Source: Octopus vulgaris
Lineage: Eukaryota
Reading direction: 5' to 3'
Length of the DNA stretch: 64,000 nt
NCBI GenBank assembly: GCA_951406725.2
Contig: OX597820.1
Span: 78,492,001-78,556,000 of the forward strand
The notes under the pieces were generated by a model. It was not told the origin of the DNA. It was given only the letters and a program-made list of their open reading frames with translations, and did not search any database. Below are positions 31,840 through 64,000 of the stretch, piece by piece. The position numbers were made by a program, and so were the translations under genes. Within the stretch, counting starts at the first letter, position 1. Every line of letters starts with the position of its first letter.

Positions 31840-32612
31840 CCTTTTATTCTTTTACTTATTTCAGTCATTTGACTGCGGCCATGCTGGAGCACCGCCTTTA
31901 GTCGAACAAATCAACCTCAGCACTTGTCCTTTGTAAGCCTAGTGCTTATTCTATCGGACACTTTTAATGGACCGCTAAGTTACGGGGCCGTATACACACC
32001 GACATCGGTTGTCAAGTGATGATGGGGGACAAACAGTCTTACAACGTATATATATATATGTATATATATATACTCTCTCTTTTACTCTTTTACTTGTTTC
32101 AGTCATTTGACTGCGGCCATGCTGGAGCACCGCCTTTAGTCGAGCAAATCGACCCCAGGACTTATTCTTTGTAAGCCCAGTACTTATTCTATCGGTCTCT
32201 TTTGCCGAACCGCTAAGTGACGGGGACGTAAACACAGCAGCATTGGTTGTCAAGCAATGCTAGGGGGACAAACACAGACACGCAAACACATACATACATA
32301 TATATACATATATACGATAGGCTTCTTTCAGTTTCCGTCTACCAAATCCACTCACAAGGCATTGGTCGGCCCGGGGCTATAGCAGAAGACACTTGCCCAA
32401 GATGCCACGCAGTGGGATTGAACCCGGAACCATGTGGTTGGTTAGCAAGCTACTTACCACACAGCCACTCCTGCGCCTATATATATATATAGCGGTTCGG
32501 CAAAAGAGACCGATAGAATAAGTACTGGGCTTACAAAGAATAAGTCCTGGGGTCGATTTGCTCGACTAAAGGCGGTGCTCCAGCATGGCCGCAGTCAAAT
32601 GACTGAAACAAG

Positions 32613-52855: not shown

Positions 52856-53300
52856 ATAGATAAATATATACACATATGTATAGATATAAATATATATATA
52901 TATATACATAAGTATAGATATAAATATATATATGTGTGTGTAGATAAATATATATACATATGTATATATAAAAATATATATATACATATGTAGAGATATA
53001 CACATTTATACATATGCATAGATATAAATATGCATACATATGTATAGATATAAATATGTACATTCACATACACATATATGAAAGTGGAACACCAAACTTC
53101 AAGATGAATTATTGAACGCATTAATTTATTAATGCCGCACTTATATGATTCTTTAAAATAAATTTGGCTCCAATAAACAATTTTAAAAAACACTATATAG
53201 CCCTAGGAAGCATCGACGCTTCCTGTCGGCTTTGTCACATTTCCTGTGTCCTTATATTTGCGAAGGGGAGGCAAGCACCCCCACCATCTAGGACTAGCAA

Positions 53301-53346
53301 CCTGAAGACATGCATGTTTCTGGGTCTTGCCCGTCATCAGTCCAGG
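53301..53346 (-). ncRNA. Type I hammerhead ribozyme
   Basis: Reverse complement: cctgga CTGATGA c ggg-caaga-ccc a GAAA catgcatg TC ttcagg. Confidence 0.85.
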
Positions 53347-53514
53347 GTAGCGAGTCCCGCTAGTTGAGATACCTGCCAAGCCTTCGCAAATATATATATA
53401 TTTACAGTGAAATCTATTCACTGGTCACCGTAATTAGAAATATTGAATTTCTAAATGTCTCAAAGAGACATGAGCGAAGGCTTGGCAGGTATCTCAACTA
53501 GCGGGACTCGCTAC

Positions 53515-53560
53515 CCTGGACTGATGACGGGCAAGACCCAGAAACATGCATATCTTCAGG
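53515..53560 (+). ncRNA. Type I hammerhead ribozyme with a G>A change at the base of stem III
   Basis: cctgga CTGATGA cgggcaagaccca GAAA catgcata TC ttcagg. Confidence 0.75.
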
Positions 53561-53858
53561 TTGTTAGTCCTAGCTGGTGGGGGCGCTTGCCTCTCCTTCG
53601 CAAATATAAGGACACAGGAAATGTGTCAAAGCCAACAGGAAGCGTCGATGCTTCCTTGGGCTATATAGCGTTGGTGTAATTCCATTACGGGACTGTCACG
53701 TTATGTTGACATACAACCACTCTATCGCTCCACCACCGCTCATGTCTCTTTGAGACATTTAGAAATTCAATATTTCTAATTACGGTGACCACTGAATAAA
53801 TTTCACTGTAAATATATATATTTGCGAAGGCTTGGCAGGCATCTCAACTGGCAGGCTC

Positions 53859-55496
53859 ACGGAAGTGTTTGTGTCGGTTATTTTGTATTTGCGGTTGTGA
53901 GTTGGATTTTGCTGATTATTGTTGTTGAGAACTGTTGCGTCGTGTTGAATTGCGGGAGCAGCAGGCAAGGGCCTGACTGCGAACGAATTACAGTTATAAT
54001 TGCCGAGAAGGAAAATTTGAGGAAATACTACGACAGCTTCAAGAAGGAAGGAGAATGTCTGAGGGTTATACCACCTGAAGACGAAGTGAAAGAAGCGGAG
54101 AAAAAATCATAACATACAGAACATGGAATGTAGTCTCAAAGAGAATAGAAGTAGCAGAGGTGGAAGAGATTGAGAAATGTCTACAGGAAATTAAAGGAAG
54201 AACTACCTTCTGCAATAGAGGTAGAAAATACGCTACTGTAGACGTTCGTTTTGAAAATGAAGACGAAGCGAAGAGGAACGCCACGACAGTTTTGAGATCG
54301 GAAAAATGGGTTTTACTTCCTAGTTATTGTGGAAAAAGAGCAGTGAGGATACGAATAAGCAAAATCCCACCGGAACTTGATACCGAAAGCATAGTAGCTG
54401 CAATAATCTACAACTGCAAAGAGAGCGTGGACATACTTAAGGTGGAAAAGTCGAAAGAAATAAACTGGTGGGGTTATTCGGTGCAGGCTTCGGTCCACAT
54501 AACCATGCCAGATTTGTATAACATCCCGGAGGAGTTGGTGTTCCCCGACGAGACACGACTGAGAGTCGTGGTGGAGGGGAGACCTCCAGTGTGTTATAAA
54601 TGTAAGAGCAGAGGGCACATGAAGGATGTGTGTCCTCAATAGGAAATACAAGAGAAGACGATAACACTTGAGGAAGGAATGGAGGTTTTGACAGAAGAGT
54701 TAGAAAAAGAGAATGTGGAATTGCAAGCGGAAGAGGAAGTCGTGATCGTGACAACAGATAATGTGGAAAGTGGCAACGACTTAGTGAAGGAGGAAGAAAA
54801 GGAAAGAACAGAAGAAAAAGAGGATAGAAAGCGAACACGGGTGGAATCACCACCCAAAGACCAAAAAAAGAAAATAAACTAAAAAGAAGTCTGCCGACGA
54901 GACAGAGGGTCGAACGCGCGAAGGGAGAGATACAGCAACTAAAGTGAGTGAAGATCCAACGTGGGATGAAACGGAAAAATGGTCAACAAAAGTGGAAGAA
55001 TGTCTGAAAACATGCAAGGAAGGAGAAAGACCAAAAGGAAGAAATCTCAATGCTTTAATGTTGTACAAAAAAAGATAAAGAAATTGAGAAAAAATTAGCG
55101 ATAATGAAAAATCTAACGAGAGTGAAATTGAACCCGAGGATATACGATAACCAAATAAAGGCTGCAATTGTGGATAAAGAGACGGTAAATAAATTAATGA
55201 ATTTGTTTTCAAATACAGCTGTGTGCATAGCGCACTACGTTCGACATGACAGTTTGCCCGGCTTTATAGAACAGGATGAATTACTCGTTTACATTACTGA
55301 CGAACACCCCAAATAGTACAACTGTAATTGTAAATGAAACTGCGAGCTTTGGGGGGCTCGTAAGCTATTCCATTTAATTCATTATTAATATTTCATTTCA
55401 TATCATCCTTTCTGTATTTTTATTATATGTACCCCATGTCCTGTATTGTATTGTTATGTCCCCTCTTCATTCAGGCCATTGTGCCTATAATAAAGA
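53859..55496 (+). mobile_element. Non-autonomous ORF1-only element C, nested in the HHR repeat
   Basis: Interrupts the 350-nt unit at atctcaact; gag-like ORF1, no RT; T-rich 3' UTR ending ctataataaag. Confidence 0.8.
54160..54642 (+). CDS. Gag-like ORF1 core: RRM-like region plus CCHC zinc knuckle (part of a broken ORF spanning about 54000-55316)
   Basis: YATVDVRFENEDEAKR...LLPSYCGKRAVRIRISKIPPEL...VVVEGRPPVCYKCKSRGHMKDVCP (C-x2-C-x4-H-x4-C); a Glu-rich continuation follows the stop. Confidence 0.8.
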   Translation: MEEIEKCLQEIKGRTTFCNRGRKYATVDVRFENEDEAKRNATTVLRSEKWVLLPSYCGKRAVRIRISKIPPELDTESIVAAIIYNCKESVDILKVEKSKEINWWGYSVQASVHITMPDLYNIPEELVFPDETRLRVVVEGRPPVCYKCKSRGHMKDVCPQ

Positions 55497-55519
55497 TTTT
55501 AACTAGCGGGACTCGCTAC

Positions 55520-55565
55520 CCTGGACTGATGACGGGCAAGACCCAGAAACATGCATGTCTTCAGG
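55520..55565 (+). ncRNA. Type I hammerhead ribozyme
   Basis: cctgga CTGATGA cgggcaagaccca GAAA catgcatg TC ttcagg; GUC cleavage triplet ends at 55559. Confidence 0.85.
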
Positions 55566-56061
55566 TTGTCAGTCCTAGATGATGGGGTTCTTGCCTCCCC
55601 TTCGCAAATATAAGGACACAAGAAATGTGTCAAAGCCAACAGGAAGCGTCGATGCTTCCTAGGGCTATATAGCGGTGAGTGTAATTCTATTACGGGACTG
55701 TCACGTTATGTTGACATTATACAACCATTCTATCGCCCCACCACCGCTCATGTCTCTTTGAGACATTTAGAAATCAATATTTCTAATGTATTGGGATTGT
55801 TGTGTATCATAGTATCGGTAGTATATCTGTAATACAAGGTAGTATTAGAGTAAACCAGTAGAAGCCGGATAAACTAGTGATAGACTGTATTGACAAATAG
55901 TAAATGATAAATAGTTTACAAAGTAAAATATATTATCTTCTCTCGATGAAGAGGTGACATCTAATATTTCGCATGAAGAATTATTTCGAGATTGATATAG
56001 TAATGTTATATAGTGTTTTATCATGGATGTTTGTCTGTGAAAGGGAAGAATAAATTGATTG

Positions 56062-59438: not shown

Positions 59439-59516
<78 letters not shown>

Positions 59517-59520
59517 CTAT

Positions 59521-62325
59521 GTTTCTTTATTAGCCACACAGGGCTGCACACAGATAGAACAAATTACAAGGTAGAGCTTTTCTTTTGAAGGTTTAAAAAA
59601 AAAAAAAAAAAAAGGAAGGGGGAGTTTCGATCAAAAGGGATCGTAAAAGGAGAGAAAGAGGACAAAAAAAGGGGGTTAAAAAAAAAGGGGGAGAGGAAAA
59701 AAAAATTGATCAATAGGGATCGTTATCACAGAAATGTCAATATGAAGTGTAAAGGGGAGGACAGGTGAGGTTTACCCGTGGAAAGAAAAGCCTACGGAAA
59801 AGACCACGGTAACCTCGGTCAATGAAGTCACATTTTATATTTCTTTTTTTTTTTTTTTTTTTTTGCAAATAAGCAACTCTCTGTTTTCGACATAAGCCCA
59901 CAGGTCGGAAATTGTTGGACACTGAACGAGTGCGTGCAGAACGGTTTCGTCGCTCTGACCGCATCTCGGGCAGGTCGGCCCCGTGTTTCTCGAGCCGTGT
60001 CTGTAGAGCTTTTCCCGAACGGGTAGCGCTTCTCGGTAGCACTGCCAGGCCAGGGATCTCTGGAAGTTGTCCATGGGCCCTGGCCCGAAAGTCGTCCTGA
60101 ACAGTCGTCCTCGTCGACGTCCAGGTTCGCCCCGAGCTCGTCGTCGTACCTCCCCTCCACTAAACCCCTATAGAATGCTTTGGTTGTGTTGAAGTCACTT
60201 AAGGTCGACCCAGGACGGCAGAGTTGCTTGAGAGCAACGCGACACTCGCGGTGCCATTCGCCCTTCCTCGGCCTCTTTTTGATCCACGACTGCAGTTCGG
60301 TCATGGAGACGAGCTGCGGGAAAGCGTGCCTCACAAACGGCGACCACACCTGTTCACCGTCGTCTACATAGAGCCAGAGATGTCGCAGTCTCAGCGCGTG
60401 TCTGCGCATCATCAACCACGGCATGCCCAGCCCTCCTTTTAACGGGTGTTGACAGCAAATGGATCGCCTGACCATCGGGACGCATCCTTTCCACAAGAAG
60501 CGAAAGAGGATGCGTTGTAGTTTGGTGATGGTAGGGTCGGGACAAGGTACGACGGTCAGGCGGTAGTAGATGACGGACGCGATGTACGTGTTCGCCACCT
60601 CCGCTCGACCTTTTAGGGACAGTTTCCTCTCGGCCCATTGCCGGGCGAGAGTGACCACCCTACTCGTTATCTCGTTCCAGTTCTTCTCCACTTGGAGGTC
60701 CGGACCAAACCAGACCCCGAGCAACTCAACCGGGCCGTCAGTCCAGCGTCCCACGACGGAGGCGCTGGTGGACGGCATGGGCTTGCTTCTCCAGGTGCCT
60801 AGTCGCAAGCCCACTGACTTTTCCCGGTTGATTTTCGCTCCTGTCACCGCTTCGTAGTTTTTCAGTGTCTCGCCGACCAGCTCGATGTGCTCGTGGCTAG
60901 ACACTATGACGGTGACGTCGTCCGCGTATGCAGACACGCTCGTCCCGCATCCCAATTCTCGCGGGATGCCCCTTAGAGTCGCCAGCTTCCGCAGTAGTGG
61001 CTCAAGAGTCAATACGTATAGAAGCGCCGAGAGGGGGCATCCCTGACGGACCGAACGTGCAATGTCGAAAGGTCTCGATAGATGTCCATTTACGCGAATT
61101 ACCGAACGGATGCCTCTGTACAAGGCAGCTATCCAGCCGCGGAAGACGGGACCGAAACCAGCCGCTCTCAGGACTGCCTCCAAGTATCGATGGTCTACCC
61201 TATCAAAGGCTTTCGATTGATCCAAGTTGATCAGGGCCCCACCCATGCCAGGTTCGTTAACTACCCTGTCTATGATGTAGCGCATCAGATGGAGGTTGTC
61301 ATGGATGGTCCGGCCTGGCACGGCGCATGTTTGCGCCTTGTCGACCAGTTTCTCGATGACAAGCGCCAACCTCTTGGCTAGCACCTTGGCCAAAATTTTC
61401 AAGTCTGCATTAAGCAGAGTGATGGGCCTAAAGTTATCTATTACATTTCCCTTGTTTAGATCTTTCTTCAGCAGTGTTACGGCTCCTCGGCTCACAAAAC
61501 CAGGAATGCTCCCGTTTTGCTGCCAGTTGCAGTACACCGCCGCCAAGAGATCTCCAAACAAGTCTGGCATACAATTGTAAAGCTCGTAGGGTAGACCATC
61601 CAAACCCGGTGATTTGTCCCTCGAGCATTCTGCCATCGCTTCCCGCACTTCCGCCGCCGTGATGGCACCTTCGCAGCACCCTGCCTTTCTTGTCGAGAGT
61701 CGTGGTAGGCTATGTAGGTAGGCACTGAAGTCCACCCTACGTTCTTGCCCTCCACTCGTTCCGAACAGTCGGGCAAAATGCTGCTGAAAGGCCTCACACA
61801 TTTTACTTGGCTCGAGCAATTCGCGCCCCTGTTCATCTACCAGTGACCGAATGGTGGCTTTGTTGCCCTGTTGCGCCTCTGCCACCCGGGCCTCTCTCGC
61901 GGCTCCAACACCTTCGTTCCTTAGAGCACGCATCCTAGCTCTGACAGCACATCCTTCGTGTTTGGCGTTGAAGTGTTGGTCGAGGGCCAACCTCGCCGCC
62001 AAAACGTCGGATGCGATGCCGCTTCTAATTGCCTCTTCTAGCTTCTTAACTAGCTCACCCTCTACTCTATTTCTATCTATGGCTAGTGCTTTGCTGTACC
62101 TAATCGCTTCTGCTTTTACTGCTCTCTTGAGGGCAAACCACCATTTGTTGTTGATGATGGCTCCCGTCAAAGCCCTCTTTACTAGTGTGCTAATCCGGTC
62201 TCTGAAAACTTGTCTCGATGGGAAAGACGCGTTTAGTTTCCAGTATCCGGGACCCTGCCTAAGTGTCTTACCTAAGTCTAGCGTACATGTCACAAGTTTG
62301 TGATCCGTGTAGCTGACTATGTGGA
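59521..62325 (-). mobile_element. L1/Tx1-clade LINE, 5' truncated, inserted in a (GATA)n tract
   Basis: APE C-terminus (TDH), GYWKLN, KSPGLDG, FRPITLLN, DQSKAFDRV, RQGCPLS and YADD; C-terminal CPRC...H...C in a shifted frame; 3' UTR ending aataaagaaac. Confidence 0.93.
59880..62323 (-). CDS. LINE ORF2 (partial APE, RT, zinc finger); frameshift near 60100
   Basis: ORF-track 59828..62575 minus its microsatellite-derived N-terminus, plus 59835..60074. Confidence 0.9.
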
Positions 62326-62866: not shown

Positions 62867-63785
62867 ATTTGTCTATTGTATGTCACGTCACAGTACCCTC
62901 TCGCAACTTGGGGAGAACAACACGTATGTTTTTCCAAGTATTGTTGCTAACTTAGTACTTCCTAAGAAATTTGGTGTCTGCAGCTTTTCATGCCAGAATA
63001 ATGCTTTCTCTGAGATAGTCCCACGTGCATCGATCACAATAGATACCACACACACTTTTGAAGATCTATGATTGTCGTTCACTTCCAATGCTAGGTCTTG
63101 ATAGTAGTGTCGGCATCTAATTTAATGGAAGCTGTTTGTCTGAGCTTGCCTCTTACAAAAGTTGCTTTAGCACACTTATCAAGGCCAAAGTCCATCTCAA
63201 TGTCAGTATTGAATTCTTTAACAGTTGTTAACAGCCCTACTAGCTCTTTACTCTTTTTAGCAAACAGATGGTTTATTGTTGTATTGAAAATTTGAACCCA
63301 TACCTGGTGTTATTTAGTCTGTTTGAGAGTGGGGTCAGTGCCATGCAAAAGAGTAATGGGGAGGAGGAGTCACCTTGAAAAGTGCCTCGTTTGATGCTGA
63401 TGTTGTTAGTTTGGCTCATCCTATTACTATGGTTTATAAGAGAACGTGTGATCCACTTGGTCATGCTATCTTGTAAGAATTTGGAGATGACAAGAGAGAT
63501 CTTATATATCTCAAGGGCTTTGAATATCCAATTATGTGGGACACTATCAAACGCCTTCCTGTAGTCTATCCATGCTACACTCAAGTTCTTCTTTTTGCTC
63601 CGGCAATTCTCTACAATCCGTATACTTCGAAGTAATTTATCTTTTCACCCATTAGAATTCTTTTTACAGCGTTTTTGCGCTTGTAGAAGGATAGATCTCT
63701 GTTTAAGTAAAGCGTATATTCTGTCAGTTAATATGGACGTGAGGATCTTCTAGGTGGTGTTGAGACATGTTATCGGTCGTTACTT
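62866..63785 (-). mobile_element. Dong/R4-type (RLE) LINE remnant with internal deletions
   Basis: SVAWIDYRKAFDSVPH, RGTFQGDS.SPLLFC and C-terminal VVSIVI..RG...ATILG.TYVL; its 3' end abuts (TAG)n at 62808-62865. Confidence 0.75.
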
Positions 63786-64000
63786 CTTTGGATTATTATT
63801 GAGTGAGAGAGCAGTGCATGCCATCAAAGTGACACTGGGGTAAAATATATGAAGCCCAGTAGATCCATCATGACTACCCGTCTGATAAGGGTACACTAGG
63901 CACATGCATCACAACCATATGTGCGCGACATGGTGATCTCATATCAAGATAAACCACGCAGGACCTTGCAGGTGGAGCCCACTTAGAATTTTCTTCTGGT

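Follow-up and report, generated by a model that had tools for sequence, protein, structure and literature searches.

An ORF1-only Tx1-type element recurrently inserted at one site of octopus hammerhead retrozymes, with a probable link to snRNA-type start sites

Introduction

Several described retrotransposon systems resemble, each in part, the element described here, which we call element C and which lies between two hammerhead ribozyme motifs in a 64,000-nucleotide stretch of the Octopus vulgaris genome (contig OX597820.1, positions 78,492,001 to 78,556,000; hereafter the window). The comparisons below refer to the available parts of the cited papers. In the case of the Tx1-Mar LINEs and SINEU of crocodilians (PMC4494074), a Tx1-type LINE and a non-autonomous passenger share a target inside another mobile element, as in octopus; likewise, tandem copies sandwich a duplication, 5' heads derived from U1 or U2 occur repeatedly, and transcription from the flank was proposed. 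The crocodilian elements, however, target a Mariner DNA transposon, and their heads were ascribed to template switching, whereas the octopus elements sit in retrozymes and at position +1 of U1 and U2. Moreover, the octopus passenger encodes an ORF1, and the length of its head equals that of the duplication. Keno (Tx1 clade, with an APE endonuclease) and Utopia are non-LTR elements also found in U2 genes (PMC4640811), there at nucleotide 38/39, in contrast to the octopus elements, which separate promoter from gene by lying at +1 and are present in U1 and retrozymes as well. Only Keno, Utopia, Dada-U1 and Dada-U6 are listed for snRNA-gene targeting in the available text of that source.

With regard to coding content, HAL1 (half-L1; PMC5753468) is, like C, a non-autonomous LINE derivative encoding ORF1 alone; HAL1 derives from mammalian L1, with no target specificity stated in the accessible part of the source, whereas C is Tx1-type and site-specific, with an RRM-RRM-CCHC protein. 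Drosophila HeT-A (PMC5537684) shares with C a Gag/ORF1-only content, head-to-tail arrays, promoter sequence upstream and an RT-bearing helper, although HeT-A is telomeric and its promoter is the 3' UTR of the previous copy, while C would use a host promoter of snRNA type. Integration of a non-LTR element at a fixed distance from promoter-bound factors is known from Dictyostelium TRE5-A (PMC3159450), where Pol III factors direct it to about 50 bp upstream of tRNA genes; in octopus the genes are Pol II snRNA-type and the position is +1. Finally, non-LTR retrozymes, which are considered derivatives of Penelope elements (bioRxiv 10.64898/2026.07.22.740005) and of their pLTRs, match the host repeat of C in the 350-nt monomer, type I hammerhead, partial tandems and lack of an ORF. 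A LINE parasite or coding insert in retrozymes is absent from the available text of PMC7229834 and of the bioRxiv paper, in contrast to the octopus retrozymes carrying C.

In octopus, 13 active L1-Tx1 families have been reported, in a paper whose main text mentions neither hammerheads, snRNA nor nested insertions (PMC13282606). Our literature search revealed no LINE with retrozymes or snRNA +1 as its target; Repbase and Dfam were outside its scope, and the families may already have names. The individual parts of the arrangement are precedented, as far as the available texts go (PMC4494074, PMC5753468, PMC5537684, PMC3159450, bioRxiv 10.64898/2026.07.22.740005).

Results

Layout of the locus and its hammerheads

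The features of the locus are collected in Table 1. The initial annotation had reported two same-strand hammerheads cutting 2005 nt apart, with an RRM-like and CCHC protein devoid of reverse transcriptase (RT) between them, and both statements hold: the cores lie at 53521 and 55526, with C17 at 53554 and 55559, and the protein comprises two RRMs, one CCHC and a coiled coil. The imperfect duplication at the junctions also proved real, with the bounds of Table 1, and the start of C, previously placed at 53840, was corrected to about 53860. Of the damage described for the reading frame, the frameshift (54100-54105) and the stop (54640) were found again; the list was short, as the copy has also lost 38 nt including the start codon (53952/53954) and has indels near 54875 and 55067. 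This copy of C is dead.

Table 1. Positions of the features at the insertion locus, numbered within the window
Feature	Position	Strand	Remarks
Inverted 5' retrozyme arm	53189..53476	-	Monomer positions 1-196 and 261-363; holds a third hammerhead, core 53340
Upstream retrozyme	53477..53845	+	One 350-nt monomer (53477-53826), then positions 1-19 of the next monomer
Hammerhead 1	53515..53560	+	Type I, AUC, stem III mismatch; predicted cut after 53554
PSE-like heptamer	53788..53808	+	One mismatch here; within a short inverted repeat of the retrozyme
5' copy of target duplication / inherited 5' head	53846..53859	+	Predicted transcription start 53846
Element C	53860..55496	+	ORF1-only, Tx1-type; terminal AATAAAGA (55489-55496), then a 4-nt T tail
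Decayed ORF1	53954..55316	+	Start codon lost, frameshift near 54100, stop 54640, indels near 54875 and 55067
Codons of single CCHC zinc knuckle	54592..54633	+	
3' copy of target duplication	55501..55514	+	Retrozyme position 20 onward
Hammerhead 2	55520..55565	+	Type I, GUC, palindromic stem III intact; predicted cut after 55559
Downstream retrozyme part	55501..55787	+	Stops at the fixed 3' end of the family (monomer position 304)

Both hammerheads have a stem I of 6 bp and a stem II of 3 bp with a C.A pair at 10.1/11.1. The stem III mismatch noticed earlier in hammerhead 1 is a C.A pair that costs one base pair and lowers the predicted stability of the stem III self-duplex to -6.3 kcal/mol, against -13.5 kcal/mol for the intact form. 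The predicted cut of hammerhead 2 lies 63 nt beyond the end of C. Rfam at gathering score gave no hammerhead in the window or the fetched loci, and the motifs were examined by hand; single-strand folding of the two window hammerheads was similar to that of shuffles (z -0.15 and -0.39). Stem III was perfectly palindromic in 107 of the 149 hammerhead motifs of the fetched loci, with eight different sequences, and strict cores numbered 1544 genome-wide compared to 0 for a reversed-pattern control. On the basis of these two observations, the hammerheads were taken as real motifs. By analogy, a palindromic stem III fits hammerheads of the dimer type such as those described for amphibian retrozymes in the available text of PMC7229834. 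Core variants CCGAUGA, UUGACGA and UUGAAAA occur in the retrozyme families of five loci (L083, L116, L232, L235, L270), where nearly all hammerheads, with activity as a prediction, have the C.A pair at 10.1/11.1.

The host repeat itself is non-coding and consists of tandem monomers in the 150-450 nt range with a type I hammerhead predicted to self-cleave, as is characteristic of non-LTR retrozymes. Its 3' end is fixed at 302-306 in 29 of 30 loci, and 14 of the 30 have an inverted 5' arm; together with 5' truncation and partial tandems, these features are those of Penelope-like derivatives. In the upstream monomer of the window the target site, at about 53496, is empty.

Other repeats were seen in the window, whose repeat content, like its named protein matches, indicates an octopus genome. 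Two tandem copies of a 238-nt repeat occupy 31841-32310 and are presumably related to the common octopus SINE. Fragments on the minus strand at 62950-63900, and at 73-1623 of locus L061, belong to another RT-type element, which we take to be R4/Dong-like by its motif. A 5'-truncated LINE at about 59500-62320 (minus strand; RT domain E 7.8e-31) ends with AATAAAGAAAC beside a (GATA)n tract, and a near-identical piece of it (59515-62320) sits inside a C relative in L218.

Element C as an ORF1-only derivative of a Tx1-type LINE

The protein of C had been labelled Gag-like. No LTR, PBS, pol or capsid fold was seen for C, so that it lacks the marks of a retroviral or LTR Gag, and the protein is LINE ORF1-like. 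A search for intact ORFs, proposed in the initial annotation, gave a natural relative with an intact 460-aa ORF1 (P0001, locus L024). Its alignment-based structure model (pLDDT 72.5, compared to 38.8 for the single-sequence model) matches tandem RRM proteins (best E 8.5e-5). A zf-CCHC domain was matched in 23 of 33 members of the ORF1 family. An ORF1 profile searched against the PDB matched zinc knuckles alone and no L1 ORF1p, and the named homologs are octopod: eight of ten looked-up proteins carried names, with relatives from O. bimaculoides, O. vulgaris, O. sinensis and Argonauta. At the C-terminus, residues 340-455 of P0001 form a confidently modelled extra alpha/beta domain, for which tblastn gave no counterpart in the partner ORF1s described below.

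Across the RRM-CCHC region, the ORF1 of C shares about 30% amino acid identity with the partner ORF1, and no RT lies between ORF1 and the 3' end. Element C is a HAL1-like ORF1-only derivative of a Tx1-type LINE, and judged by its sequence not a HAL1 in the strict sense, which is mammalian and L1-derived. The median dN/dS of the ORF1 in this solo lineage was 0.12 (56 pairs with dS > 0.3), a ratio that marks it as under purifying selection. Solo-lineage ORF1s and the partner ORF1s found are well separated and have long diverged. Stacks of differing intact ORF1-only elements occur at eight loci (L111, L112, L117-L121, L128), with near-identical copies on different contigs.

A recurrent insertion site in retrozymes

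The counts for C that follow refer to best-scoring subsets, namely the best 40 of 380 candidates of a DNA search and the best 92 of 63,092 of a protein search. Among 48 distinct C 3' ends in loci retrieved with C as query, 33 sit 19-30 nt 5' of a hammerhead core, another five are followed by a duplication and then by a further family member, being stacked at the target, and ten lie elsewhere. Tabulation of the flanks, proposed in the initial annotation, showed that the junction recurs in at least four diverged retrozyme families. Genome-wide, AATAAAGA followed by the strict core gave 74 matches, the control 0. Had the insertion been a single untargeted nesting event with unrelated flanks, a reading to which the ten ends elsewhere would lend some support, neither the 38 of 48 ends at one site nor the 74 matches would be expected; this reading is excluded with near certainty, and the C of the window is real, multi-copy and targeted. 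With the pattern used, only 74 of the 1544 strict cores are occupied, so that most retrozyme copies lack the insert.

Target-primed reverse transcription is shown to be the mode of movement of C by duplications, 5' truncation and a shared 3' end. Separate duplications of 13-18 bp accompany truncated copies both inside retrozymes (L142, L150) and outside them (L138, L139, L156). In a tree of 27 copies, the host label switched nine times (minimum 4, shuffled mean 13.4), so that host use is clustered, yet with repeated switches. These duplications and host switches together indicate that C inserts independently of its host.

The initial annotation had offered two readings of the locus, a targeted parasitism of the retrozyme or a composite element processed by ribozymes. 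The recurrent site strongly supports the first. According to the second, retrozyme and C would form one unit, freed by both hammerheads as a 2005-nt RNA, closed into a circle and copied by the Penelope-type enzyme responsible for retrozyme movement. Structures suggestive of joint copying do exist. In three loci (L025, L063, L065) the inverted arms hold the C 3' end and retrozyme between outer flanks of TA repeat, and positions 249 and 304, where retrozymes usually end, are also where the arms of L025 stop; Penelope-like elements typically show inversions of this kind, according to the available text of PMC8557442. Three further loci (L061, L137, L158) have truncated C joined to retrozyme without any upstream retrozyme, and a search for duplications around them found none; either co-copying or a deletion at a later time may account for them. 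However, a co-oriented hammerhead within 480 nt upstream was present in only 4 of 32 C copies with a full 5' end, no upstream retrozyme piece starts at the cleavage site, and, by the pattern used, some 95% of strict cores carry no insert. In the window, rolling copying of a composite circle would not leave the site of the upstream monomer empty, no plus-strand promoter motif lies 5' of hammerhead 1, and stem III of that ribozyme is the weakened one. Inverted arms, moreover, need not imply co-copying: locus L240, a candidate 5-kb co-copied composite, was rejected since its inverted arm has a separate 65-nt insertion with its own duplication. As the main route, the composite unit is thus very improbable, and it is not supported as the normal mode; as a side route, occasional hitchhiking of C with a retrozyme copy is evenly poised between true and false. 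Targeted parasitism is the part of the earlier two-way reading that stands, and that reading lacked both the autonomous partner and the snRNA link described below.

Autonomous Tx1-type partners

Located 5' of the matches to AATAAAGA plus core were not only C but other ORF1-only families and full-length LINEs of 5.3-5.5 kb. Three of the latter (L193, L197, L198) have retrozyme on both sides and duplications of 15-17 bp. The partner LINEs encode an ORF1 homologous to that of C and an ORF2 with APE, RT and zf-RVT domains, and their named matches include the Tetraodon pol-like protein Q76IM5 and YTX2 (35-37%). By these named matches, rather than by a reference tree, the partners appear to be Tx1-type. 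In many copies ORF2 spans 1134-1148 aa without a stop; the scores are identical, and some of these copies stand in arrays. The last ~60 nt follow a pattern ending in ATAATAAAGA that is common to C and partners.

Among 32 partner 3' ends retrieved by endonuclease similarity, 14 lie in retrozymes, two in U2, four in stacks and six in an unnamed repeat; three are at gene-like starts, one of which has a TATA box 32 nt upstream, two are elsewhere and one was not found. Target specificity with duplications of 10-20 bp, as is usual in the Tx1 clade, was thus seen in the partners. Altogether, the insertion is very probably targeted and performed by a Tx1-type partner. C is likely mobilised by the enzyme of a full-length relative, with the note that the ORF1s of the candidate helpers have long been separated from that of C.

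Two more specific helpers were considered. An RT partner with the exact 3' UTR of C seemed present in L191/L185 and was rejected, since the C-like UTR there proved to be a fragment apart from the RT element, which has a terminal AATAAAGA of its own. The minus-strand LINE of the window (about 59500-62320) is Tx1-like but terminates before its (GATA)n tract, and is at most a candidate helper of C. A young partner subfamily forms long arrays (L247, L249, L255-L262) with a period of about 5.28 kb and at least six copies, in a multi-copy repeat without Rfam match.

Insertion at snRNA +1 and the upstream heptamer

In the case of L263/L264 and L267, elements with 96-97% amino acid identity to the retrozyme-inserted L198 are inserted exactly at U2 +1, in the order promoter, 14-bp duplication, element and full Rfam U2; L285 is inserted at U1 +1. 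Upstream of the octopus U1, U2, U4 and U5 genes, RYCAGT(G/C) occurs at -56 to -60 in 38 of 47 regions (U1 18/23, U2 5/6, U4 4/6, U5 11/12; copies within arrays are not independent). The same heptamer was found in 40 of 112 empty retrozyme sites compared to 1 of 112 control windows. Mapping to an empty template succeeded for 73 of the 118 occupied retrozyme sites. The 3' junction lay 54-63 nt past the heptamer in 42 of these 73, 65-67 nt past it in ten, as a second class, and further away in 21, for which the templates fit badly. The heptamer of the window begins at 53788, which puts the first base of the 5' duplication, 53846, 58 nt further on; it is the sole plus-strand motif of promoter type there and sits between the two ribozymes.

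Heads at the 5' end give a further record. Heads of 17-28 nt that start exactly at U1 +1 were found away from U1 promoters in a C copy (L010) and in L277, and a second, older head is carried by L002, L005, L027, L264 and L267. Such heads are what transcription from the 5' duplication would leave. Template switching could also have produced the U1 heads, in analogy to what is proposed for SINEU in the available text of PMC4494074. The 5' ends of the retrozymes were scattered, with no pile-up at cleavage site or predicted start, and are uninformative here. A promoter of snRNA type has been reported for newt satellite 2, a retrozyme, in the available text of PMC2220036.

Ordinary Pol II start sites may be targeted as well, as hinted by a partner 32 nt past a TATAAAA box (L244) and a C copy about 26 nt past one (L030). 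On contig C18 of the assembly (G000, 48.97-49.21 Mb; L280-L300, L325-L329) an array of about 25 U1 genes has Tx1 fragments nested at the start of one U1; U5 genes are arrayed on C25, and U4 genes form a cluster on C4.

An alternative is that the same element and the same targeting operate through DNA sequence alone, by endonuclease preference and pairing of the tail of read-through RNA, with the heptamer as an RNA hairpin and the snRNA likeness as local sequence. Several observations are in line with this. Some of the ten off-target C ends lie at sites beginning like the target, as do the duplications in L138, L139 and L156, and U2 has about seven bases around the nick in common with one of the retrozyme families. 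With a 34-column snRNA promoter matrix, the predicted position was recovered in no more than 14 of 65 retrozyme sites, against an expectation of 2.7 and up to 13 with shuffled columns, a weak result, so that the likeness to snRNA promoters is limited to heptamer and spacing. Furthermore, the heptamer of the retrozyme is one half of a covarying inverted repeat and could be conserved as an RNA hairpin; the repeat targeted by one autonomous subfamily, with 6 of 32 3' ends, has no heptamer at -58; and Tx1 target choice is set mainly by the endonuclease, according to the available text of PMC4494074. On the other hand, the first bases at the nick vary among U1, U2 and the retrozyme families while the heptamer distance stays at 54-63 nt. 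In addition, the nearly identical elements described above occupy corresponding positions in U2 and in retrozymes, and a match of four to seven bases is too little to explain 38 of 48 on-target ends in 2.8 Gb. We consider targeting by sequence alone unlikely, and insertion of C at snRNA-type start sites with promoter capture probable.

Discussion

The preferred reading, insertion at snRNA-type start sites, suggests the following course of events. C would have entered a pre-existing dimer of hammerhead retrozymes, likely at the transcription start of a predicted snRNA-type promoter, in which the heptamer may be the core of the proximal sequence element. The promoter-bound machinery would position the integration complex, with some help from a local sequence match of a few bases. 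Each new copy would then come under the host promoter and be transcribed from the 5' duplication, and daughters would thereby inherit short host heads.

In the window, such an RNA would start near 53846, 3' of the first ribozyme, leaving the upstream hammerhead without a role. It would end at an AATAAA or at the cut at 55559, with about 1714 nt in the latter case, and the cut would leave a 63-nt tail matching the target. This RNA would carry the downstream ribozyme only, whose palindromic stem III probably makes for partial cleavage, and ORF1 would likely act as a chaperone for C's own RNA. Contigs of four runs presumed to be RNA cover both C and retrozyme, at a resolution that does not extend to starts, strand or circles; among the matches listed for four other runs, no contig joined C and retrozyme by a 31-base rule.

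A broader scheme is offered tentatively, as slightly less probable than even. Here, an octopod Tx1 lineage with long-lived ORF1-only passengers would dock on Pol II snRNA-type pre-initiation complexes at +1 and capture the promoters of U1, U2 and retrozymes. Its heads would record past hosts, the host hammerhead would form the target-matching 3' end, and the retrozymes would act as thousands of decoy promoters absorbing insertions.

The target class suggested here, the +1 of snRNA-type units common to U1/U2 genes and hammerhead retrozymes, was not found described in the literature searched. How promoter-less elements with U1 or U2 heads are transcribed was left open in the available text of PMC4494074, and the present reading gives that question a testable answer. 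Intact, identical autonomous copies exist, which opens the mechanism to direct assay. For site-directed integration, too, a LINE that homes on a promoter start is of interest. For the retrozymes themselves, the footprints of the parasite map the likely transcription start of an invertebrate retrozyme.
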